A DNA stretch of 55,213 nt from a virus (Duplodnaviria > Heunggongvirae > Uroviricota > Caudoviricetes), in IMG/VR virus record IMGVR_UViG_2698536646_000013, one strand, 5' to 3'. Position 1 is the stretch's first letter. The number at the start of each line of letters is the position of its first letter. The notes beneath the pieces were generated by a model that was not told the origin of the DNA, made no database searches, and worked only from the letters and a program-made list of their open reading frames with translations. A program made the position numbers and the translations under genes. Below are positions 1-55,213 of the stretch, piece by piece.

Positions 1-7
1 AAGAAAT

Positions 8-40
8 AGGGCTTCCACCTGGGAAGCCCTTTCTTTTTAT
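8..40 (-). terminator. Rho-independent terminator downstream of pspG
   Basis: Stem agggcttcc (8-16) / ggaagccct (22-30), loop acctg, flanked by an A-run on one side and ttctttttat on the other, so it could act in both directions. Lies just 3' of pspG on the minus strand. Confidence 0.6.
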
Positions 41-165
41 AGTTCGGCTGTATGTAGGGTACAGCACGATGAATCTGTTAGAGGCGCAATAGTGACAGAT
101 TTGATTATCAATTCCTATTTTGTTCTAAGGATAAAACCTTAGGTTGTGATCATCCGCACAATCCC

Positions 166-408
166 TTAGTAACGCCAGCGGTCATAACGCTGATATTTCG
201 GCACTTTTGGTGCTTTAATCGCCTTAATAACCCACACCACCGCAATCGCCAGTAGTAACCACGGCAGCAACTTAATCATCAATGCCAGCATACCGCCGAG
301 GAACATAATGGCCGTCGCCACAACCAGCGCGGCGATAATGCCCAGCAACGAAACGCCGGTGACCATCAGCATGACAAAAAAGCCAATCACAAAAAGTAGT
401 TCCAGCAT
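166..408 (-). CDS. pspG: Phage shock protein G (80 aa)
   Basis: C-terminal 80 aa of ORF 166..618 read MLELLFVIGFFVMLMVTGVSLLGIIAALVVATAIMF..., matching PspG as I recall it. ATG confirmed at 406-408 on the minus strand. Confidence 0.9.
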   Translation of the reverse strand: MLELLFVIGFFVMLMVTGVSLLGIIAALVVATAIMFLGGMLALMIKLLPWLLLAIAVVWVIKAIKAPKVPKYQRYDRWRY

Positions 409-443
409 GATGCTCTCCCAAATATGAAATCTCTTGCTGGCAT

Positions 444-459
444 TACAAGAATCATGCCA
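444..459 (-). promoter_or_regulatory. Candidate sigma54 (-24/-12) promoter for pspG
   Basis: Minus-strand sequence TGGCATGATTCTTGTA resembles the TGGCAC-N5-TTGCA consensus. It sits about 40 nt upstream of the pspG start, and pspG is known to be PspF/sigma54-dependent. Confidence 0.4.
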
Positions 460-541
460 AAAATAATCTATTGATTTAACAGCAAAACGCCCCGCGACGG
501 TGCGCAGGGCGTGGTGAATTTGACTACTTTTTGGTGAAAAG

Positions 542-1579
542 TTAACGCTTATCCGCCACCAGTTTGAGCGCGTGTTCCAGCACATTAATGTCTGCACCCG
601 CTTTATGGGCATTTTCACTTAAATAACGCCGCCACTGCCGCGCGCCAGGAATACCCTGGAACAAGCCCAACATATGCCGGGTAATATGGCCGAGATACGT
701 CCCCTGGCTGAGTTCACGCTCAATGTACGGATACATGGCGCGCACTACCGCCACCGGATCGGCATCGGTATCCGAGGAACCAAAGATCTCCCGGTCTACC
801 GCCGCCAGAATACCCGGATTCTGATACGCCTCGCGCCCGACCATCACGCCATCCATATGTTGCAGGTGTGCTTTGGCCTCTTCCAGCGACTTGATACCAC
901 CGTTAATCGACATTGTCAGATGCGGAAAGTCACGCTTCAGTTGATACACACGCGGATAATCGAGTGGCGGGATTTCACGGTTTTCTTTCGGGCTTAACCC
1001 CGAAAGCCAGGCTTTACGTGCGTGGATGATAAACATCTCACACTCGCCTTTGCCGGAAACGGTGTTGATGAAATCGCAGAGAAATTCATAGCTGTCCTGG
1101 TCATCGATGCCAATACGCGTTTTCACCGTCACTGGAATCGACACCACATCGCGCATCGCTTTCACGCAGTCGGCAACCAGCTGCGCATTACCCATCAGAC
1201 ACGCACCAAACATGCCGTTCTGCACCCGGTCAGACGGGCAGCCGACATTCAGGTTGATCTCATCATATCCACGCGCTTCTGCCAGCTTCGCACACTGTGC
1301 CAGCGCCGCCGGATCGCTACCGCCGAGTTGCAACGCTACCGGATGTTCTTCTTCACTGTACGCCAGGTAATCACCTTTACCGTGAATAATCGCCCCTGTG
1401 GTCACCATTTCGGTATACAGCAACGTATTGCGGGAAAGCAGACGCAAGAAATAGCGGCAATGTCTGTCCGTCCAGTCGAGCATAGGAGCAATGCTAAACC
1501 GAGAACTCCAGTAAGCGCCAGTTTTTTCAGGCATCACGCTGGTTTGATTAGTTTTCTGTGTTTCAGGATTATCGTGCAT
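542..1579 (-). CDS. dusA: tRNA-dihydrouridine(20/20a) synthase DusA
   Basis: 345-aa ORF with the conserved Dus core ([24 protein letters not shown]). The first ~30 residues differ from the K-12 N-terminus I remember, consistent with a phage-supplied replacement 5' end. Confidence 0.93.
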
Positions 1580-1612
1580 TTTTGAACATTTCAGGCTATT
1601 TTTCTCGCGTTA

Positions 1613-1647
1613 GGTTCCCGCACAGGTTCCCACGCTTTATGGGAACC
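1613..1647. repeat. Three copies of GGTTCCC (two direct, one inverted) in the dusA-int intergenic region
   Basis: aGGTTCCCgcacaGGTTCCCacgctttatGGGAACCcg. Candidate integrase or regulator binding sites, or a promoter element for the re-built dusA 5' end. Confidence 0.4.
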
Positions 1648-1667
1648 CGAAATAACGAGGTCGTGTA

Positions 1668-2765
1668 ATGGCGTACTATAACATAGAGAAACGACTAAAA
1701 TCCGATGGCACACCACGCTATCGCTGTAATGTGATTATCAAAGAAAAAGGTGTTATCACTTACAGGGAAAGCAAAACATTCCCTAAACATGCTCATGCCA
1801 AAACATGGGGCGCACAGAAAGTGATGGAATTAGATCTATATGGCATTCCATCATCAAATGCTGTTGACGGACTTACAGTCCGTGACTTACTACACAAATA
1901 TTTAAATGACCCAAATGCCGGAGGTAAAGCAGGCCGTACTAAAAGATATGTGCTGGAACTGCTTATGGATAGTGACATCTCCGCGATCAAACTATCTGAA
2001 CTGACAGAAAATGACGTAATTGAACATTGCAGGCTAAGAAACAACGCTGGTGCAGGCCCAGCAACAGTCAGCCACGATGTTAGTTATCTTGGCAGTGTTC
2101 TGGATGCGGCAAAACCTGTATACGGAATCAATTACACATCAAACCCGGCGAAAAGCGCTCGTCCATATCTACTTAAACTCGGTTTGATTGGTAAATCAAA
2201 CCGTCGTAATCGTAGACCAGCATCTGATGAACTGAACATGCTCATTGAAGGCCTTCAACAACGATCTACTCATAAATGCTCAAAAATTCCGTTCGTTGAT
2301 ATCCTCAAATTTTCTGTGTGGTCCTGTATGCGAATCGGAGAAGTATGCCGGTTACGATGGGAAGATCTCGACCAGGAACAAAAATCTATACTAGTAAGAG
2401 ACAGGAAAGATCCACGTAAAAAGGAAGGCAACCATATGAAAGTTGCCTTGCTTGGGGAAGCCTGGGATATCGTCCAGCGACAACCCAAAAAATCAGAATT
2501 CATTTTTCCATATAACAGCACTTCTGTTACCGCAGGATTTCAGAGGGTAAGAAGCAAATTAGGTATTAAAGATCTGAGATACCATGATTTGCGTAGAGAA
2601 GGGGCAAGTCGCTTATTTGAGGCTGGTTTTAGTATTGAGGAAGTCGCTCAGGTTACAGGGCATCGTTCATTAAACGTGCTATGGCAGGTATATACCGAAC
2701 TGTATCCGAAATCTTTACATAATCGTTTTGAAGAACTCCAAAGGAGCAGAAATAAGACCTCTTGA
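1668..2765 (+). CDS. Tyrosine recombinase / phage integrase, dusA-associated type
   Basis: 365 aa, divergent from dusA. C-terminal catalytic region has RIGEVCRLRWEDL and HDLRREGASRLF...VTGHRSLNVLWQVY (R..HxxR..H..Y). RBS aacgagg precedes the ATG. Confidence 0.9.
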   Translation: MAYYNIEKRLKSDGTPRYRCNVIIKEKGVITYRESKTFPKHAHAKTWGAQKVMELDLYGIPSSNAVDGLTVRDLLHKYLNDPNAGGKAGRTKRYVLELLMDSDISAIKLSELTENDVIEHCRLRNNAGAGPATVSHDVSYLGSVLDAAKPVYGINYTSNPAKSARPYLLKLGLIGKSNRRNRRPASDELNMLIEGLQQRSTHKCSKIPFVDILKFSVWSCMRIGEVCRLRWEDLDQEQKSILVRDRKDPRKKEGNHMKVALLGEAWDIVQRQPKKSEFIFPYNSTSVTAGFQRVRSKLGIKDLRYHDLRREGASRLFEAGFSIEEVAQVTGHRSLNVLWQVYTELYPKSLHNRFEELQRSRNKTS

Positions 2766-2825
2766 CACTGTTTATCCATACAGTTAAAAATAATACTGTA
2801 TACAAATACAGTGTAGGGGACTTTT

Positions 2826-3074
2826 ATGCGTATTGAAATCTGCATAGCCAAAGAAAAAATGACTAAAATGCCAACCGGTGCTGTGGATGCGTTAAAGGAA
2901 GAATTAACCCGACGCATCAGTAAACGTTATGACGATGTAGAAGTGATCGTAAAAGCCACCAGCAACGATGGCCTTTCTGTTACGCGCACCGCTGATAAAG
3001 ATTCAGCTAAAACTTTTGTTCAGGAGACTCTGAAAGATACCTGGGAGTCTGCTGACGAGTGGTTTGTTCATTAA
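2826..3074 (+). CDS. DinI-family protein
   Basis: 82 aa, MRIEICIAK...[11 protein letters not shown], matches the DinI pattern (MRIEVTIAK...ETWESADDWFV). Confidence 0.85.
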
Positions 3075-3105
3075 GTTCATCATCTCTGGACACCATTCAC
3101 TTGTA

Positions 3106-3135
3106 TTGACTTTAAGATCATTAAATTGTAATAAT
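3106..3135 (+). promoter_or_regulatory. Sigma70-like promoter driving the RT-module leader
   Basis: -35 TTGACT at 3106-3111, 18-bp spacer, extended -10 TGtAATAAT at 3127-3135. Predicted start near 3142, at the first inverted repeat. Confidence 0.4.
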
Positions 3136-3140
3136 TCAAA

Positions 3141-3277
3141 GGGATGGGGCAGGTTTTTCCTCTTGCGCATGCAAGGGCGGCTCTGATAATGAACAGTAAT
3201 ATTTTACTGTTGAGCTTATGCTCACTGATCCTGCCGGGCAGGATGTTCAACGGTTCCAATATATCCTGCCCCTTCCG
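3141..3277 (+). ncRNA. Candidate structured non-coding RNA (retron msr-msd-like leader)
   Basis: Inverted repeat gggatggggcagg (3141-3153) / cctgccccttcc (3265-3276) brackets three hairpins at 3162-3175, 3192-3211 and 3228-3244. Ends 20 nt before the next start codon. No ORF. Confidence 0.35.
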
Positions 3278-3296
3278 CTTTTAAAAAGGATCTTTT

Positions 3297-3848
3297 ATGC
3301 ATGACAATATTTGGTTTACATATAAAGCACGTATCCAAGCGCACCATCGACTAGAATGGCTTGAAAAACACTCTCAATTTATCCTCGTTTGGTATGCTAT
3401 ATTGAGTGCGGTACTTTCAATTGTAACGTTGCGATTTCCAAAGGTTCTAGGAGATAATACAGATGTCGTTGCGGCGATACTTTCAGTGGCTCTACTGGGT
3501 ATTTCTCTGATCGTATCTAACCTAGATTTTCGTGGTCGAGCAATAGCCATGAGAAGGAATTATATTGCACTACAGCGACTCTATTTTGACATTACCACCA
3601 GTCAACAGTTATCTCTTGAACAGAAAGAAAAATATTTTAATTTGCTCAATGAGGTTGAGAATCACCGTGACATAGATGATAAAATTTCAAGGGTAACTCA
3701 AGTTGGACTTAAGACGAGGATCCCCACACAAAAAGAAAAAATAATTGTTATTTTATGGATATTACTTCGAATATTTATTACTGCCGCACTTTATATACTC
3801 CCATTAATATATCTTTGGATTGACTATGACTGCAAGCAGAATTTTTAA
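3297..3848 (+). CDS. Membrane protein with three hydrophobic segments (candidate effector of the RT module)
   Basis: 183 aa. Hydrophobic helices FILVWYAILSAVLSIVTL, VVAAILSVALLGISLIVSNL and IIVILWILLRIFITAALYILPLIYLWI. AT-rich codons, overlaps the RT ORF by 29 nt, RBS aaagga. Confidence 0.75.
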   Translation: MHDNIWFTYKARIQAHHRLEWLEKHSQFILVWYAILSAVLSIVTLRFPKVLGDNTDVVAAILSVALLGISLIVSNLDFRGRAIAMRRNYIALQRLYFDITTSQQLSLEQKEKYFNLLNEVENHRDIDDKISRVTQVGLKTRIPTQKEKIIVILWILLRIFITAALYILPLIYLWIDYDCKQNF

Positions 3849-5196
3849 AAAGTCATTCTCGAAAAAAAATCTTCTAAAAGTATACTCTGAAAAAATCAAA
3901 GAATCAGGAGCGATTGGCATAGATCGGATTCGCCCATCAAAACTTGATTTGACAATAAAAAATGAGATCACTTTCATTTTTGAAAAGGTTAATTCTGGCA
4001 ATTACAAATTTACAGCATATAAAGAAAAATTAATATCTAAAGGCGCTAACTCTACACCCAGACAGATTTCCATACCAACTGCTAGGGACAGAATTACTCT
4101 TAGAGCTCTCTGTGAATGCCTTACGGAAATATATCCTAAGTCCAGATTAAAACTACCACATACAGTAATTGACTCATTGAAAGAAGCATTAAACAACAGT
4201 CTATATGCTGAATATGCAAAAATAGATCTTAAAAGTTTCTATCCTTCAATTGAACATAAATTGATAATTAATGCAATAAAAAATAAAATTAGAAAAAAAG
4301 AAATTAGACAGTTAATAACATCATCATTAATCGTGCCTACTGTAAGTGGAACCACAGGAAGCAAAGGTATCCCTAATAATACCAGAGGAGTACCTCAGGG
4401 ATTAGCGATATCAAACATTTTAGCTGAAATATCACTATCTAATTTCGATGATGAAATCAATAAAATGCATGACATATGGTACATGCGATACGTTGATGAC
4501 ATTCTTATTTTAACACCAAAATATCAAGCAACAAAAATAGCTTCTCATATCATTGATAAGCTTCAATCATTAAATTTAAACCCACATCCATTAAATGAAG
4601 AGAACTCAAAATCCAAAGTAGGCAGCTTGGATGAAAGTTTCAACTTTTTGGGCTACCACATAAAAAATCGAGAATTATTGATAAAACATGAGAGCATTCT
4701 TAGATTTGAGTCATCCTTAGCAAAAATTTTTACTGCATATAGACACGCTCTACTACAAGCTAAAAATAAGCGCGATAAAGAACGAGCTGTTGCATATTGT
4801 CAGTGGAAACTAAATCTTAGAATTACGGGATGTGTGTTTGAAGGTAAACGATTGGGATGGGTATCGTACTTCTCACAAATAACGTCAACAGCTCAACTTC
4901 GAGCTGTTAATCATACGATCAATAATCTTATCCGCCGATTCGGCCTTTCATCAGAAATAAAACCAAAGTCTTTGATTAAAACTTTCTATGAACTCCGCAG
5001 GGGTAGAGCGGAGACTTTTAAATACATACCTAACTTTGACAATCTACATATATCTCAGAAACGAGAAATTGTTTCTATGTGGATAGGGAAAGAGAATGAA
5101 AAAAAACTTAGCAATAGTGAAATAGAGAGAAAATTTAAATTTAAAATTGCGAAATCAGTAAAAGAGCTTGAAGAGGACATTTCAGGGATATCATAG
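3820..5196 (+). CDS. Reverse transcriptase (retron-type or defence-associated RT)
   Basis: 458 aa with RT motifs PRQISIPTARDRITLRAL, KIDLKSFYPSI, GVPQGLAISNIL, YMRYVDDILIL and FNFLGYHI, plus an ITG motif in the C-terminal thumb-like region. Very AT-rich. Confidence 0.9.
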   Translation: MTMTASRIFKKSFSKKNLLKVYSEKIKESGAIGIDRIRPSKLDLTIKNEITFIFEKVNSGNYKFTAYKEKLISKGANSTPRQISIPTARDRITLRALCECLTEIYPKSRLKLPHTVIDSLKEALNNSLYAEYAKIDLKSFYPSIEHKLIINAIKNKIRKKEIRQLITSSLIVPTVSGTTGSKGIPNNTRGVPQGLAISNILAEISLSNFDDEINKMHDIWYMRYVDDILILTPKYQATKIASHIIDKLQSLNLNPHPLNEENSKSKVGSLDESFNFLGYHIKNRELLIKHESILRFESSLAKIFTAYRHALLQAKNKRDKERAVAYCQWKLNLRITGCVFEGKRLGWVSYFSQITSTAQLRAVNHTINNLIRRFGLSSEIKPKSLIKTFYELRRGRAETFKYIPNFDNLHISQKREIVSMWIGKENEKKLSNSEIERKFKFKIAKSVKELEEDISGIS

Positions 5197-5260
5197 ATAT
5201 GTAATCCATTAAATCCTTTATATATAAAGCAATAAACACACTATTTAAATTCACAAATCA

Positions 5261-5294
5261 GCCGCAGTATCCTGCCATGACAAGTTGCTGCGGC
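5261..5294. other. Hairpin between the convergent RT and tfa genes
   Basis: gccgcag...ctgcggc 7-bp inverted repeat with a 20-nt loop, T-rich on the minus-strand side. Possible terminator for the late operon. Confidence 0.3.
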
Positions 5295-5308
5295 ATATCA
5301 CAAAACGA

Positions 5309-5998
5309 TTACTCCATAACAGGGACCGCAGGCCACTCAATATCAGGTGCAGTTGATGTATCAACACGGTTCAGCAACACCCGATACTTCTTCCAGGCTT
5401 CCAGCAACGAGTTTTCTTCCTCCGNNNNNNNNNNNNNNNNNNNNNNNNNNNNNNNNNNNNNNNNNNNNNNNNNNNNNNNNNNNNNNNNNNNNNNNNNNNN
5501 NNNNNNNNNNNNNNNNNNNNNNNNNNNNNNNNNNNNNNNNNNNNNNNNNNNNNNNNNNNNNNNNNNNNNNNNNNNNNNNNNNNNNNNNNNNNNNNNNNNN
5601 NNNNNNNNNNNNNNNNNNNNNNNNNNNNNNNNNNNNNNNNNNNNNNNNNNNNNNNNNNNNNNNNNNNNNNNNNNNNNNNNNNNNNNNNNNNNNNNNNNNN
5701 NNNNNNNNNNNNNNNNNNNNNNNNNNNNNNNNNNNNNNNNNNNNNNNNNNNNNNNNNNNNNNNNNNNNNNNNNNNNNNNNNNNNNNNNNNNNNNNNNNNN
5801 NNNNNNNNNNNNNNNNNNNNNNNNNNNAACAGCCACAAAGCCAGCCGGAATATCTGGCGGTGCAATATAGGTACTGTTTGCTGGCAGACCTGTATGAGGC
5901 GGAATATATGCGTCACCTTCACCAATAAATTCATTAGTTCCGGTCAGCAGATTATAAATTTTTATGGTCCGTGGTTGTTCACTCATTCTGAATGCCAT
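5309..5998 (-). CDS. tfa: Tail fibre assembly protein (Tfa), interrupted by N-run
   Basis: N-terminus [18 protein letters not shown]...[10 protein letters not shown] and C-terminus [30 protein letters not shown] resemble lambda/Rac Tfa. Start overlaps the stf stop (TAATG). Confidence 0.8.
5425..5827. other. N-run (assembly gap or masked sequence) inside tfa
   Basis: 403 consecutive N. Confidence 0.95.
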
Positions 5999-8900
5999 TA
6001 TGCAAGCCTCACAATATAGTTAAATGCGATGTTTTTGACGGTGTTTTNNNNNNNNNNNNNNNNNNNNNNNNNNNNNNNNNNNNNNNNNNNNNNNNNNNNN
6101 NNNNNNNNNNNNNNNNNNNNNNNNNNNNNNNNNNNNNNNNNNNNNNNNNNNNNNNNNNNNNNNNNNNNNNNNNNNNNNNNNNNNNNNNNNNNNNNNNNNN
6201 NNNNNNNNNNNNNNNNNNNNNNNNNNNNNNNNNNNNNNNNNNNNNNNNNNNNNNNNNNNNNNNNNNNNNNNNNNNNNNNNNNNNNNNNNNNNNNNNNNNN
6301 NNNNNNNNNNNNNNNNNNNNNNNNNNNNNNNNNNNNNNNNNNNNNNNNNNNNNNNNNNNNNNNNNNNNNNNNNNNNNNNNNNNAAAAACACTGGGGTTAA
6401 ATCGACGGCCATCTCTATGGCTGTGATTACCAGCTGCATTCGTGCTGCCACTTAAACTATGGGTATGCGCACCAGTGTTATTCGTGGATTTAGTGCCGTA
6501 ATCAAACGACGATGTGGTTTTCGTCCCCAAATCCGTACTGGATGCGCTGGCGCTGTGGGTATGCGATTTAATGCCGTCCTGTTCCTGAGACAATACGGCC
6601 CGACCACTGGCAGGTTTGCCCTTAATCGTCCAGCCACGCATATCAGGGATCACACCTGACGGATAAACGGCTGCAAGTTTCGGGTAAGCAGATTTGTCAA
6701 AAGTCTGTCCCTGCATCAGGGCATAACCAGACGGAACGGTATCTGATGGCCACGGGATTGGTGCACCGACTGGGTAGCTTTCTGGTGGAAGATTTTTCGA
6801 GGTATAAACTTCTGCCCAGTCTTCCTCAAAACCATAACCGTCTCTTGAAGAACGGTAGAACAGACCACCATTTCTGTAATGCGCCTTCATCTGCAAGGTC
6901 CGGCAACTTCCGACTCCGGTATAGAAGTTAACCAGAATATAGCTGTTGCCAGAGCGGGTGACATTGTAAGCGCCTGATTCGGCATTCCATGGAACGCCAC
7001 CATCCGCATCGGCATATGTATCCGTTGCCCTTCTGGCAAAAGCAGCCACATGCGCGGCGGTTAAAGTAATATCTTTGGAACCATCAAACTCAACACCAGA
7101 AACCAGTCTTGGCGTTTGCAGCTTTGTTGCTGTCAATGCGTTACCGTTCAGACTTGCAGACAGTTTGGTTCCAATAACCAGTTCGCCGGTTGCGTTATCA
7201 ATAACAAACGGTCTTAATGTATTCCAGCCACCATAAACATCACCTTGATTGGTAAGCAGCAGGTAAGTTTTAGCGCCATCATTACGCCATAATGCACCAT
7301 ACTCCCCACCTATCATTCGAATCTGATTACCACCACGCGCTACAATTTCGTCTGTGGCAAAAAGTTTTTTGCACGACAAGTTATCGTTAACGATTAACGA
7401 ATGAGACTCATAAAAACCACGCCCACTCTTAAAATCAAGGATAACGTCCGCCGCGATACATTCAGTCGCCGGATTTGTTGCCCCAAACTTATAGGTCGTA
7501 TCATTAACAACGAGATCAGCACCAGGTGCGGATATTGACAGGCCATCTTCGAGAAACGCAAAAACAGGGAAAGCAGCGCCATCAACATAGAACACAGAGC
7601 GCAAATCATCGCCCTTATTACTCATCATTATTGAGTGGATGGCTCGTTCATTGTTTTGATATTGCCAGAACATTCCATAAGCATAACGCCCCCTGTCAGT
7701 CCAGCCACCAGGCATAACAAATCCGTTAAACTCGCAGTTATTCATCGGATCGCCTGCGATTCGCGTTGCCGTGGTGATAATGACCCTTGATGCCAGTTCG
7801 CTTACTGAGCCAGCAGAACGCATAACAACAACAGGGTAATATTTTCCAGATGTTGCACCTGCAGGAGCGTTAACCCGCACATAACGCATACCACGCTTAT
7901 CAGCAAAGTCTGTTTTACTGACCGCGTTAATGTTGTTCAGGAAGCGTCCCTTATCGGGTATATCAGCGCCGTTCTGGTCTTTCTGCAGACGTTTCTCAGC
8001 ATTGTCATTGGCTGCTTTTACTGCCTTTGGCGTTGCCGCCAGCGTTTCAGACGTGCTATTAGTCGCACTACTGAGCTGTACTATCCCCTTTTTCGTCGTG
8101 CTCGCATCCTCAAGCGCCACGGCGGATGCAATATCCTCTGCACGTTTTGCCGCTGTCTCGGCGCGCGTTGCCGCGGATTCCGCCGTACTTTTGCTCTGTG
8201 CTGCCGCCGTCGCACTGCCAGCAGCCTCTGTCGCCTTCGTGGATGCTGTCGTGGCGCTGCCCTTCGCTGCGGACGCTTGTCTGGTCGCCTCATCTTTTGA
8301 AGCAGACGCCGATGATGCCGATGACGCCGCCGAACTGGCGGACGATGCGGCAGCCGTTTTTGAGGATTCTGCGCTGGTCTCCGACGCTTTCGCGTTCGTC
8401 TCCGATGTCTTCGCTGCGGAAGCAGACCTCGCTGCTGCACTGGCCTGTTCAGTGGCTTCGCCAGCCTTCGTTGTGGCTGTTGAAGCGGACGATGCGGCGC
8501 TTTCTGCCGATTTTCCGGCGGCGCTAGCACTGGCTGAGGCCTGCCCGGCACTTGTTGACGCTGCACTGGCAGACGACGCAGCCGCTGTTTTTGAGCCTGC
8601 TGCTGCGGAGGCACTCTGTGCTGCTGCCGTTTCAGAGGACTTAGCGTTTGTCTCAGACGTCTTTGCCGCCTTCGCGGAATTTCCTGCCGCCGTTGCCGAG
8701 GAAGCGGCATTACTGGCGCTCGAAGCTGCGCTCGTTTCTGATAATTTTGCCGCCTCTTTTGAAGCCGACGCATCTCTGGCTGAGGTGGCTGCTTCTGACG
8801 CTTTCGTGGTCGCGGTGGATGCAGAAGTGGCAGCTGATTGTTGTGACGCTGCCGCATTCGTTTCTGACGTTTTCGCCGCACCGGCACTGGTGGCCGCCGC

Positions 8901-9549: not shown

Positions 9550-10606
9550 TCAGAATTTATAACCGACACCCACGATGAAACCGTCAGTGCGCCAGTCGCC
9601 ACTGCCGGAGCCTTCATAAGCAATATCAATGGCCACGGATTCGGTCGGGTTAAACTGCACGCCAGCTCCCCACGCCAGAGACGTGTTGCTGTGGCGACCG
9701 TCATCACTTCCGGTCAGCACGTCGTGCGTTTTCCCCTTGTTGTCAGTTACGCGGAGATAATCCCCGGAGAAAGTCGACACACGGCTGTAAGCCACACCCG
9801 CCATCGCATACGCGCTGAACCATTCATTCACGCGCACAGACGGCCCCGCCATTACGCTGAACCAGCGGTTACGAACGGAATCTTCATGCCAGCGGGTATC
9901 GCTGTAACGGGTCAGCTGGCGATTCTTGTCTCCTGCATAGCTGAATGACGTCACCAGCCCCAGNNNNNNNNNNNNNNNNNNNNNNNNNNNNNNNNNNNNN
10001 NNNNNNNNNNNNNNNNNNNNNNNNNNNNNNNNNNNNNNNNNNNNNNNNNNNNNNNNNNNNNNNNNNNNNNNNNNNNNNNNNNNNNNNNNNNNNNNNNNNN
10101 NNNNNNNNNNNNNNNNNNNNNNNNNNNNNNNNNNNNNNNNNNNNNNNNNNNNNNNNNNNNNNNNNNNNNNNNNNNNNNNNNNNNNNNNNNNNNNNNNNNN
10201 NNNNNNNNNNNNNNNNNNNNNNNNNNNNNNNNNNNNNNNNNNNNNNNNNNNNNNNNNNNNNNNNNNNNNNNNNNNNNNNNNNNNNNNNNNNNNNNNNNNN
10301 CCCCGCCATTACGCTGAACCAGCGGTTACGAACGGAATCTTCATGCCAGCGGGTATCGCTGTAACGGGTCAGCTGGCGATTCTTGTCTCCTGCATAGCTG
10401 AATGACGTCACCAGCCCCAGCGTATCCGTAAACTCATAACGGTATTTCACGTTAATCCCGTTCAGATCATCACTGCCGGGAACGTTGGTCCGGGCATGAA
10501 GATACCCCGCGCTCAGCGTGGACTGATGTTCAGACGCCCATGCAGGCGCACCGGATACGGCCAGACAAATGGCTGCGGACAAAATGGCGGCACAAACTTT
10601 ACGCAT
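9550..10606 (-). CDS. lom: Lom-like outer membrane protein (Ail/Lom family), split by N-run and duplication
   Basis: MRKVCAAILSAAICLAVSGAPAWA signal peptide, then beta-barrel sequence ending ...GFIVGVGYKF. Removing the gap and one copy of the duplicate gives a ~199-aa protein. Confidence 0.85.
9844..10420. repeat. 120-bp direct duplication (9844-9963 = 10301-10420) flanking the N-run 9964-10300
   Basis: Identical sequence ccccgccattacgctgaacc...gtcaccagccccag on both sides of the N-run. Typical of unmerged contig ends in a scaffold. Confidence 0.85.
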
Positions 10607-14150: not shown

Positions 14151-14987
14151 TCAGCGACCAATCACCACAACCTGACCACCATCCCCTTCGTCTGCCGTGC
14201 TGATCTCCTGAGAAACCACACGTGACCCCACGCGCATTTCCCCGTACAGAACAGGCAGAACATTACCCTGGGCAACCATGTTATCCAGTGACGAGAAATA
14301 CGTGTTCTGTTTGCCGTTATCTGTACTGGCTGCCNNNNNNNNNNNNNNNNNNNNNNNNNNNNNNNNNNNNNNNNNNNNNNNNNNNNNNNNNNNNNNNNNN
14401 NNNNNNNNNNNNNNNNNNNNNNNNNNNNNNNNNNNNNNNNNNNNNNNNNNNNNNNNNNNNNNNNNNNNNNNNNNNNNNNNNNNNNNNNNNNNNNNNNNNN
14501 NNNNNNNNNNNNNNNNNNNNNNNNNNNNNNNNNNNNNNNNNNNNNNNNNCATCTGCGCCACACCACCCAGGATCATACTGGCCCCTGCTGCATACATACC
14601 CGATACAGCCGCGGCCCCCAGCCAGCCCACAGGGTTCCACCATGCCACCGCAATCAGCGCCGCACCCAGCACCGCCTGAAACACACCGCCACTTTTGGCA
14701 CCCGCCAGACGCGGAACGATGTGGATCACGGCACCATTTGCCAGCGGTTCATTAAGACGGGCAGATAATTCATTTTCGCCTGCATCACGCCCGGCAATGC
14801 GCACCTGATACCAGCCGTCGCTCAGTTTCTGACGAAATGCCGGGAGCTGTGTGGCCAGTGCCCGGATGGCTTCGGCCCCCGTTTTCACACGAAGGTCGAT
14901 GCGGCGGCCAAATCGCTGCAAATCCCCGTAAAGGCAGATGCGTGCCATGCCCGGTGACGCCAGAGGGAGTGTGTGCGTCGCTGCCAT
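14151..14987 (-). CDS. I: Tail assembly protein I, interrupted by N-run
   Basis: MAATHTLPLASPGMARICLYGDLQRFGRRIDLRVKTG... and C-terminus TDNGKQNTYFSSLDNMVAQGNVLPVLYGEMRVG... match lambda gpI. Confidence 0.9.
   Translation of the reverse strand: MAATHTLPLASPGMARICLYGDLQRFGRRIDLRVKTGAEAIRALATQLPAFRQKLSDGWYQVRIAGRDAGENELSARLNEPLANGAVIHIVPRLAGAKSGGVFQAVLGAALIAVAWWNPVGWLGAAAVSGMYAAGASMILGGVAQMXXXXXXXXXXXXXXXXXXXXXXXXXXXXXXXXXXXXXXXXXXXXXXXXXXXXXXXXXXXXXXXXXXXXXXXXAASTDNGKQNTYFSSLDNMVAQGNVLPVLYGEMRVGSRVVSQEISTADEGDGGQVVVIGR
14335..14549. other. N-run inside gene I
   Basis: 215 consecutive N. Confidence 0.95.
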
Positions 14988-15996
14988 TTGTCGGTGTACC
15001 TCTCTCGTTTACTCAGTTGTTCAGGAATATGGTGCAGCAGCTCGCCGTCACCACAGTAAATGGCGGCATGATTCGGCACCGATGAACCAAAACAGCACAG
15101 CAGCACATCGCCCGGCTGCGCCGTTGACAACGGCACCTGATACAGCCCTGTAGCCTCCAGATTATCCAGATAGAGATTCTGACCATTACGCCACCAGTCG
15201 TCCTCACGATGAAAATCTGGCATCTCAATTCCCGCCAGATGGTAAGCGTCCCGGAACAGCGTGTAACAGTCCGTCACCCCGTGCTCAAAGCGCCGCCCGG
15301 TGAGATGCGGCACACAGCGGAACTTGTGAATCGCCCCGCGGCAGACCAGCCACCACGACAAATCACTCTGCACCTGCAGCCGCCGGTCGGCCTCACTCAG
15401 CCAGGGCAGACCACCGGGGTGGCTGTGGACCAGCGCCACAATCTCACCCTGCATCTCTGCCTGCAGCCAGTCCTCCGGAGNNNNNNNNNNNNNNNNNNNN
15501 NNNNNNNNNNNNNNNNNNNNNNNNNNNNNNNNNNNNNNNNNNNNNNNNNNNNNNNNNNNNNNNNNNNNNNNNNNNNNNNNNNNNNNNNNNNNNNNNNNNN
15601 NNNNNNNNNNNNNNNNNNNNNNNNNNNNNNNNNNNNNNNNNNNNNNNNNNNNNNNNNNNNNNNNNNNNNNNNNNNNNNNNNNNNNNNNNNNNNNNNNNNN
15701 NNNNNNNNNNNNNNNNNNNNNNNNNNNNNNNNNNNNNNNNNNNNNNNNNNNNNNNNNNNNNNNNNNNNNNNNNNNNNNNNNNNNNNNNNNNNNNNNNNNN
15801 NNNNNNNNNNNNNNNNNNNNNNNNNNNNNNNNNNNNNNNNNNNNNNNNNNNNNNNNNNNNNNNNNNNNNNNNNNNNGGAAATATTCACGCAGGGAAAATA
15901 TCTTTCCCCCTCCGGTGTTCTCACCACGAAGCCGCACGACTCCGCTGGCGCACATCGCCGGGCGTGCGCCAGAATCGCTGATTCTGTCTGTGTCAT
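14885..15996 (-). CDS. K: Tail assembly protein K (MPN/JAMM plus NlpC/P60), interrupted by N-run
   Basis: N-terminus MTQTESAILAHARRCAPAESCGFVV... on one side of the gap, ...HSHPGGLPWLSEADRRLQ...NHAAIYCGDGELLHHI... on the other. The two halves are in different frames across the gap. Confidence 0.85.
15481..15876. other. N-run inside gene K
   Basis: 396 consecutive N. Confidence 0.95.
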
Positions 15997-53977: not shown

Positions 53978-55213
53978 ATGTCTAAATTACCAACAGGTGT
54001 CGAGATTCGAGGTAAATACATTCGCATCTGGTTCATGTTTCGAGGAAAACGATGTCGGGAAACATTGAAAGGCTGGGAGGTTACTAACAGTAACATTAAA
54101 AAAGCCGGGAATTTAAGAGCGTTGATAGTTCATGAAATCAATTCCGGTGAGTTTGAGTATTTAAGACGTTTTCCCCAGTCCAGCACTGGGGCAAAAATGG
54201 TGACAACGAGGGTCATAAAAACGTTCGGGGAGCTTTGTGATATCTGGACAAAAATTAAAGAAACAGAGTTAACAACAAACACAATGAAGAAAACGAAATC
54301 ACAATTAAAAACACTCAGGATAATAATTTGTGAGAGTACTCCGATATCGCATATTCGTTATAGCGATATCTTAAACTACCGGAATGAACTGCTGCATGGA
54401 GAAACGCTTTACCTGGATAATCCAAGATCCAACAAAAAAGGAAGAACCGTGCGCACAGTTGATAACTATATCGCCCTGCTCTGTTCGTTGTTACGTTTTG
54501 CGTATCAGTCGGGATTTATATCAACCAAACCATTTGAAGGAGTAAAGAAATTACAGAGAAACAGAATAAAGCCTGACCCGTTATCTAAAACAGAATTCAA
54601 TGCATTAATGGAAAGTGAAAAAGGACAGAGCCAGAACTTGTGGAAATTTGCCGTATACTCCGGGCTTCGTCACGGGGAACTGGCTGCTCTGGCGTGGGAG
54701 GATGTGGATTTCGAGAAGGGAGTTGTGAATGTCAGAAGAAACCTGACGATACTGGATATGTTCGGTCCCCCAAAAACAAATGCGGGGATCCGGACGGTAA
54801 CACTACTGCAGCCTGCTCTTGAAGCACTGAAGGAGCAATACAAACTGACCGGGCATCATCGCAAAAGCGAAATCACTTTTTATCATCGGGAGTACGGCAG
54901 AACCGAAAAGCAAAAACTGCATTTTGTTTTCATGCCCAGAGTGTGTAACGGAAAACAGAAACCTTATTACTCGGTAAGCAGTTTGGGTGCGAGATGGAAT
55001 GCAGCAGTAAAACGTGCTGGTATTCGCCGCCGTAATCCGTACCATACGCGGCATACTTTTGCCTGCTGGCTGTTGACGGCAGGAGCGAACCCGGCGTTTA
55101 TAGCCAGCCAGATGGGGCATGAAACTGCGCAGATGGTGTATGAAATTTACGGTATGTGGATTGATGACATGAACGACGAACAGGTAGCCATGTTGAATGC
55201 GCGGTTATCGTAG
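53978..55213 (+). CDS. intR: Rac-type prophage integrase IntR (tyrosine recombinase)
   Basis: 411 aa, MSKLPTGVEIRGKYIRIWFMFRGKRCRETLKGW... with catalytic YHTRHTFACWLL...MGHETAQMVYEIY. Stop codon is the last codon of the window. Confidence 0.95.
   Translation: MSKLPTGVEIRGKYIRIWFMFRGKRCRETLKGWEVTNSNIKKAGNLRALIVHEINSGEFEYLRRFPQSSTGAKMVTTRVIKTFGELCDIWTKIKETELTTNTMKKTKSQLKTLRIIICESTPISHIRYSDILNYRNELLHGETLYLDNPRSNKKGRTVRTVDNYIALLCSLLRFAYQSGFISTKPFEGVKKLQRNRIKPDPLSKTEFNALMESEKGQSQNLWKFAVYSGLRHGELAALAWEDVDFEKGVVNVRRNLTILDMFGPPKTNAGIRTVTLLQPALEALKEQYKLTGHHRKSEITFYHREYGRTEKQKLHFVFMPRVCNGKQKPYYSVSSLGARWNAAVKRAGIRRRNPYHTRHTFACWLLTAGANPAFIASQMGHETAQMVYEIYGMWIDDMNDEQVAMLNARLS

Follow-up and report, generated by a model that had tools for sequence, protein, structure and literature searches.

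Taken as a whole, the best explanation of positions 1440-1667 of the window (the entire stretch of viral DNA analysed, 55,213 nucleotides) is that they form attL, the left junction of a lambda-like, mEp460-like prophage inserted in the start of dusA; comparison with phage and host sequences makes this very likely. The element is a member of the published group of dusA-specific integrase elements (PMC4482086, PMC8409611), and the phenomenon is already known. In the proposed mechanism, an mEp460-like lambdoid phage would integrate at dusA codons 33-35 by tyrosine-recombinase site-specific recombination. Sequence comparison shows that strand exchange took place within TCGAGCAT and that everything rightward of it is phage DNA: a 96-bp surrogate for dusA codons 1-32, followed by an 88-bp spacer and the integrase gene. 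The features of the junction are the following.

542-1579, minus strand: dusA ORF, 345 aa, intact
542-1475, minus strand: chromosomal part of dusA, codon 36 to the stop plus part of codon 35
1476-1483: att core TCGAGCAT, within dusA codons M33-L34-D35, from a four-way att comparison
1483-1487: phage-side core-type half-site TAGGA (putative function), in attP the inverted partner of TCCTA across the overlap
1484-1579, minus strand: element-supplied dusA codons 1-32, contiguous with int in phages mEp460 and SKA5
1580-1667: dusA-int spacer, 88 bp, wholly element DNA (P' arm of attP)
1668-2765, plus strand: dusA-specific tyrosine integrase, 365 aa, Pfam PF00589 at residues 187-346

The breakpoint is sharp. 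Identity between the window and K-12 DNA is 930/934 over 542-1475, falls to 81/99 over 1484-1582 and amounts to 20/85 (ungapped) further upstream; beyond 1582 it is at random level, and the divergence jumps from 0.4% to 18% exactly at the att core. Element codons 1-32 are related to the K-12 type of dusA (81/99 identical) and unrelated to what is called here the ancestral type. The Pfam Dus domain (PF01207) spans DusA residues 30-340. An earlier sequence-only reading had described an intact DusA ORF whose N-terminus departs from that of K-12, and this holds at the level of residues, ten of which differ among positions 1-33 and none among 34-345; the K-12 N-terminus that it quoted, MHGNSEMQKINQTSAMPEKTDVHWSGRFSVAPM, agrees with the DH5alpha locus.

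The crossover was located by comparing attP (mEp460 and SKA5, in both of which it is uninterrupted), attB (K-12 type and B2 type), attL (the window) and attR (AR434 and A14), which places it in TCGAGCAT at 1476-1483. In a five-way alignment this is the sole stretch common to attP of mEp460 and SKA5, attB of K-12, attL of the window and attR of AR434. The bases on either side tell the partners apart: AG at 1474-1475 is specific to attB and hence chromosomal, and the A at 1484 is specific to the phage. In the same alignment attL consists of the left of attB and the right of attP, and attR of AR434 consists of the left of attP followed by a K-12-type dusA 5' fragment. Homology to phage begins at window base 1476 (base 37 of the query), and the integrase with its upstream region is found unbroken in phage genomes including mEp460, SKA5 and Lys8385Vzw. 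The sequence-only reading had held that the core could not be placed from the window alone and had suggested alignment to an empty dusA locus; the core was indeed placed with the help of outside sequences, the empty locus among them. Its central proposal, that the element supplies the 5' end of dusA, is borne out by the breakpoint, by the linkage to the integrase and by the reconstruction of all four att sites.

Tyrosine-recombinase cores usually consist of inverted repeats around a short spacer. The attP core reads ATCCTA TCGAGCA TAGGAG, with the 5-bp inverted repeats TCCTA and TAGGA around a 7-bp spacer, and the overlap is, on this sequence, probably TCGAGCA (1476-1482). Lysogens of the B2 group show the same junction, with a displaced fragment of the ancestral type adjoining zur. 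In two of them (loci L008 and L009) attR retains the host core TCAAGCAT, one mismatch away from the phage core; since the host core is kept in the B2 attR, a mismatch at overlap position 3 is apparently tolerated by the integrase.

A search of bases 1300-1800 against 5426 complete E. coli genomes yielded three classes of match. The first comprises 742 genomes in which the dusA-integrase junction is the one seen in the window. In most of the remaining genomes, which carry the K-12 type, the match stops at the dusA start codon, and in a third class (ZJ3920, the type strain ATCC 11775 and other B2-like strains) it stops at about base 1492. The window-type dusA 5' end, together with the spacer, occurs in 742/5426 genomes and the junction likewise in 742/5426. 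A prophage-free strain with this same N-terminus, the case that the sequence-only reading had named as contrary to its proposal, was looked for among these genomes and did not turn up: the two counts coincide, and this 5' end is in every case accompanied by the integrase. Ordinary allelic variation in dusA, with the neighbouring integrase a coincidence, is scarcely credible as an explanation of the N-terminus. It draws on the retained reading frame and on the 82% identity to K-12 that remains over the first 99 bp, but the divergence switches from 0.4% to 18% precisely at the core, allele and integrase junction are found together in the same 742 genomes, the identical 5' segment lies beside int in free phage genomes, and lysogens contain a second, displaced 5' fragment. 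The attP/attB/attL/attR reconstruction refutes it.

The integrase gene is divergent from dusA and starts 88 bp from the dusA start (1579). Its 1538 homologues are spread across Enterobacterales. An AlphaFold2 model of the protein opens with an N-terminal three-strand sheet plus helix (residues 2-58, pLDDT about 88-90), followed by core-binding and catalytic domains, and the whole length of the model can be aligned to lambda Int (1z1g); the enzyme would be a three-domain, lambda-Int-like recombinase. Around the junction lie the following genes.

166-408, minus strand: pspG
2826-3074, plus strand: DinI-like gene (Pfam)
3297-3848, plus strand: SLATT membrane protein (Pfam; PADLOC RTasSLATT)
3820-5196, plus strand: UG17 reverse transcriptase (Pfam; PADLOC DRT RT_UG17)

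The SLATT protein and the UG17-class reverse transcriptase make up a defence pair, carried as cargo directly after int and the DinI-like gene. The cargo adjacent to int (2826-5196) has the same order in AR434 and A14.

Three copies of GGTTCCC lie in the 88-bp spacer, two direct and one inverted, as the sequence-only reading had described.

1613-1619, plus strand: putative arm-type repeat P'1, GGTTCCC, +137 from the core
1625-1631, plus strand: putative arm-type repeat P'2, GGTTCCC, +149 from the core, 12 bp after P'1
1641-1647, minus strand: putative arm-type repeat P'3, inverted (GGGAACC on the plus strand), +165 from the core

When the spacer was shuffled 20000 times, 12 of the shuffled copies contained some 7-mer in triplicate, both strands being counted. 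Four further copies of GGTTCCC are scattered over the 55-kb window. The arrangement of two direct copies and one inverted copy is invariant in all 68 of 68 related, near-identical IMG/VR loci, in which substitutions fall exclusively between the heptamers. When the whole attP is considered, the 560 bp scanned contain five copies of GG(T/C)TCCC, all of them within about 245 bp; those of the window are the P' set, and the other two are on the P arm, GGTTCCC at -61 and GGCTCCC at -50 from the core.

The layout is retained where the word itself has changed. Yersinia phage YeP1 uses the word CAGCACCCC, with two copies at 11-bp spacing on the P arm and, on the P' arm, two direct copies at 12-bp spacing plus one inverted copy, which is the same layout of two plus (two direct and one inverted) as in the element's attP with a different word. 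Pluralibacter and Silvania loci, for which the sequence covers the P' side, show the P' pattern with GTACACC/GGACACC and GGTGTAC, and an Intestinirhabdus locus has two direct copies and one inverted copy on the P' arm with yet another word. Kosakonia and Phytobacter loci carry the words GGTTCCC and GGCTCCC. The P'-arm pattern recurs in loci L021, L066 and L071. The suggestion that the repeats are arm-type sites has gained support from the two copies on the other attP arm and from the covariation in diverged relatives, and the best reading of these sequences is that the GGTTCCC copies are integrase arm-type sites, forming the P' half of a five-site set. The N-terminal domain of the integrase would then bind sites at -61 and -50 on the P arm and at +137, +149 and +165 (inverted) on the P' arm. 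Integrase on the P' sites would occupy the dusA leader directly upstream of int, and because these sites lie both in that leader and upstream of int, it could regulate both genes.

The copies may conceivably serve another purpose, as binding sites for a PrtN-type excision factor, RdfN, or for a repressor of int or dusA, or, for copies 2 and 3, as the stem of an RNA hairpin in the dusA leader. They lie in the putative dusA leader, 21-55 bp ahead of the int start codon, a position that would suit such roles; copies 2 and 3 form a 7-bp dyad, both of them are changed together in locus L010 (GGTCCCC/GGGGACC), and the leader is predicted to fold into a hairpin of the two. However, the other attP arm bears two more copies at a distance of about 200 bp, where there is no hairpin partner, and the integrase model has a putative domain for reading arm sites. 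Sites for excision factors are, in lambda biology, normally present on one arm only, and their usual confinement to one arm in lambda weighs against this role here. The fold z-score is only -1.5, and an Rfam search gave no match. Given copies on both arms, the z-score and the Rfam result, an excision-factor, repressor or hairpin function is unlikely, and arm-type sites remain the preferred reading of the repeats.

The prophage probably replaces the dusA promoter as well as its 5' coding sequence. A standard scan of 1400-2900 for -35/-10 promoters and terminators gave no promoter in the spacer on either strand. The following motif lies just beyond the spacer.

1675-1683, minus strand: extended -10-like TGTTATAGT, facing dusA, the reverse complement of int codons 3-6; candidate substitute dusA promoter

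This is the only match to TGNTATAGT in the 55-kb window. At about 70 unoccupied Enterobacteriaceae dusA loci, the APMLDW codons are preceded, at a distance of 91-99 nt, by a conserved TGCTATAGT (rarely TGGTATAGT); its near-invariance extends over about 70 species (loci L011-L089), and it is presumably the native dusA promoter. In every integrase-bearing locus the element form TG(T/C)TATA(G/A)T is found at -192 to -197, as the reverse complement of codons 3-6 (Y-Y-N-I). As TGTTATAGT at codons 3-6 resembles the conserved TGCTATAGT, a copy of the native dusA -10 seems to be carried inside the start of int, and dusA would stay expressed from this element-borne extended -10 overlapping the first integrase codons. 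Alternatively, the motif in occupied loci could be conserved just for encoding the invariant integrase start MAYYNI.

The far end of the element is not the far end of the window. BLAST with both K-12-type and ancestral-type 5' fragments detected no displaced dusA 5' fragment in the window, attR was not found there, and tblastn for a PrtN/RdfN gene gave no window match with E below 0.09. By comparison, a PrtN-family gene lies across attP from int in mEp460, AR434 and A14, and the complete prophages of A14 (about 45 kb) and of AR434 (degraded, about 24 kb) close with a PrtN-family gene, after which come an annotated dusA 5' pseudogene, DUF2713 and zur. The native dusA 5' fragment that the sequence-only reading had proposed to look for past the other prophage end is therefore absent here and present in AR434, A14 and the B2 lysogens. 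Over bases 1-5424 the window matches the A14 dusA prophage, at its left end, with 99.8% identity. Identity with AR434 stops at 5294, and colinearity with A14 at about 16.6 kb. From about 5.3-5.8 kb, in a tail-fibre-assembly gene beside a masked run, the window follows a lambdoid prophage of the Rac-locus type, to which the right-hand ~50 kb (5295-55213) belong, and its end coincides with the stop codon of a Rac-type intR (53978-55213). Because a Rac-locus-type prophage extends from about 5.3 kb to intR, the displaced fragment is not expected past the window's other end. With the dusA integrase on the left and a Rac-type intR on the right, two different integrases stand at the ends of one 'prophage'.

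None of the 5426 complete E. coli genomes has window bases 1-25000 in one place, and the joint between the dusA prophage and the Rac-type prophage is found in no complete E. coli genome of the 5426. The joint may have arisen by recombination between an incoming phage and a resident prophage or by duplication, or it may be an assembly chimera. A simple inversion between the dusA and Rac prophages was considered and rejected, both having the same orientation in A14. The window contains five N runs in tail-fibre and tail genes (5425-5827, 6048-6383, 9964-10300, 14335-14549 and 15481-15876), one of which is at the probable joint of the two prophage types.

The resemblance of the element-supplied codons to K-12 dusA bears on the origin of the K-12 allele itself. 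The 5' ends of dusA are strictly dimorphic in complete E. coli genomes, with 4303 of the K-12 type and 1123 of the ancestral type adding up to 5426. In the third class of strains (ZJ3920, ATCC 11775 and other B2-like strains) DusA has 331 aa and the start MPAESHTVYPAYRFSIAPM, and dusA directly adjoins zur. The short type with zur upstream is also that of E. albertii, E. whittamii and other Escherichia, and of Citrobacter, Klebsiella, Enterobacter, Kluyvera and others; the ancestral allele is probably the short B2 / E. albertii type with the start MPAESHTVYPAYRFS. Probably, the 5' end of K-12 dusA (codons 1-32 and promoter) together with an AT-rich segment encoding DUF2713 (yjbLM) is the fossil of an older dusA-specific island since deprived of its integrase, the start and promoter of the gene having been replaced serially. 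With the same probability, this account holds that the relic is present in 79% of E. coli, that present-day phages integrate into it, and that selection preserved no more of int than the few codons doubling as the dusA -10, in at least three independent relic lineages.

Several observations point this way. In the other genera sampled, the long MH.N.E...W.GRFS type of N-terminus stands beside a homologous integrase (64-99% identity) in five loci and is int-less in four, which are Kosakonia, Silvania and Superficieibacter loci (L022, L068, L071 and L037). The int-less Kosakonia locus L022 significantly matches the spacer and the int start of the element (E = 2e-6), and Silvania L071 retains the first int codons; L068 and L037 bear no sign of an element other than the long N-terminus. 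An extended -10-like motif is present at the element-type distance in L022, L068 and L071 and is lacking in L037. These four int-less loci are probably independent dusA-island relics. The K-12 5' end itself is closest to the element copies of Kosakonia and Phytobacter (81/96), and a K-12 -10-like TGGTATAGT is found at the element-type distance (-182), within GGGGTACTATACCATA. Upstream of K-12 dusA, GGGGTACTATACCATA resembles the int start, a local alignment pairing it with GGCGTACTATAACATA at the matching offset (p about 0.01), and the similarity is weak by itself; residual element homology in this upstream region is likewise not significant on its own (nhmmer, E = 0.2).

Between K-12 dusA and the homology on the zur side lie 1.6 kb, including DUF2713, with 34% GC as against 53-56% in the flanks. 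In K-12-type strains this low-GC segment is located at L001:1781-3283 and L005:25563-27190. Neither B2 strains nor any of the outgroup species sampled have the dusA-zur low-GC segment with DUF2713 (yjbL/yjbM), and because of this absence it is probably a remnant of an old dusA island. PHROG matches for DUF2713 were not taken as evidence of mobility, since loose boundaries of prophage records could bring the family in. No displaced ancestral fragment is left in K-12-type strains. The papers on dusA islands take the K-12 sequence as native, and no mention of an element origin of its 5' end was found in them.

The converse history, in which the dusA 5' surrogate was acquired by the phage from a K-12-type E. 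coli host, the K-12 type being native and the short B2 type derived, is quite improbable. That the phage and K-12 5' ends are 82% identical, and that the K-12 type is found in 4303/5426 E. coli genomes, would fit such a history. Yet the short type, with zur upstream and the conserved -10, is found in Escherichia species and about 65 other Enterobacteriaceae species, and the long type stands beside a homologous integrase in five loci, with element traces kept in L022 and L071. The closest relatives of the K-12 5' end (81/96) being element copies from Kosakonia and Phytobacter, and the 1.6 kb of 34% GC DNA between 53-56% flanks, also speak against it and for the K-12 5' end as the relic of an island.

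The element can be compared with several known systems. Farrugia et al. (2015) described dusA islands that supply the 5' end of the gene, including a replacement of the first beta-strand; about half of the dusA-associated integrase elements are prophages, Escherichia is well represented among them, and Escherichia integrases were placed in the DAI family (PMC4482086). Like the window, these elements have a tyrosine integrase divergent from dusA and are inserted in the dusA 5' end, and imperfect direct repeats form their attL and attR (PMC4482086). The paper reports a 21-bp semiconserved att and putative -10/-35 boxes, but is silent on arm-type repeats, on a -10 overlapping the start of int and on there being two attB types in E. 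coli (PMC4482086). Among the DAI features, the window has the divergent tyrosine integrase immediately upstream of dusA and the insertion with replacement 5' coding sequence; the displaced 5' fragment or attR at the far end and a PrtN-like RdfN across attP were not found in it. Rivard et al. (2021) showed experimentally that E. coli K-12 dusA acquires a new N-terminus and a new promoter when IMEVchUSA3 or a similar element integrates into it (PMC8409611). In the Vibrio dusA elements the excision factor is RdfN, a PrtN-like protein encoded on the far side of attP (PMC8409611). IMEVchUSA3-like elements are mobilizable SGI1-like islands, whereas the element of the window is a lambdoid phage (PMC8409611). 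Integrase DNA of the Vibrio elements matches part of the query, with about 71-74% identity to the window, and RdfN is present in these elements, unlike in the window, which has no RdfN gene.

The likeness to lambda lies in the architecture. The element's attP, of about 240 bp, resembles that of lambda in its short overlap between inverted core sites and in the repetition of arm-type sites on either arm; sites that are repeated, distinct from the core and present on both arms, as in the lambda-Int type, are found here in five copies and in YeP1 likewise. The core-binding and catalytic domains of lambda Int have counterparts in the predicted model of the window's integrase, whose N-terminal sheet plus helix may correspond to the arm-binding domain; the sequence identity between the two proteins is only 16-19%. 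The attP differs from that of lambda in the word, number and orientation (one inverted copy) of the repeats, and the element differs in that its attB falls within coding sequence and that 96 bp of surrogate gene separate the core of attP from the P' sites. SXT/R391, which integrates into prfC and was compared from the literature only, differs from the window in both integrase family and target.

Overall, the core finding is a textbook case of a published phenomenon in a common prophage family, found in about 14% of complete E. coli genomes, to which an exact core, a map of five sites in attP, the overlap of the -10 with int and the probable relic status of the K-12 allele are added as increments. 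The att core and the five-site attP map aid the calling of prophage boundaries and could support the mEp460-like integrase as a tool, and the conserved extended -10 over the integrase start is a concrete, testable candidate for the dusA promoter in lysogens. If the N-terminus and promoter of K-12 DusA are element-derived, as they probably are, this matters for studies that take K-12 as wild type and for the annotation of DusA starts.
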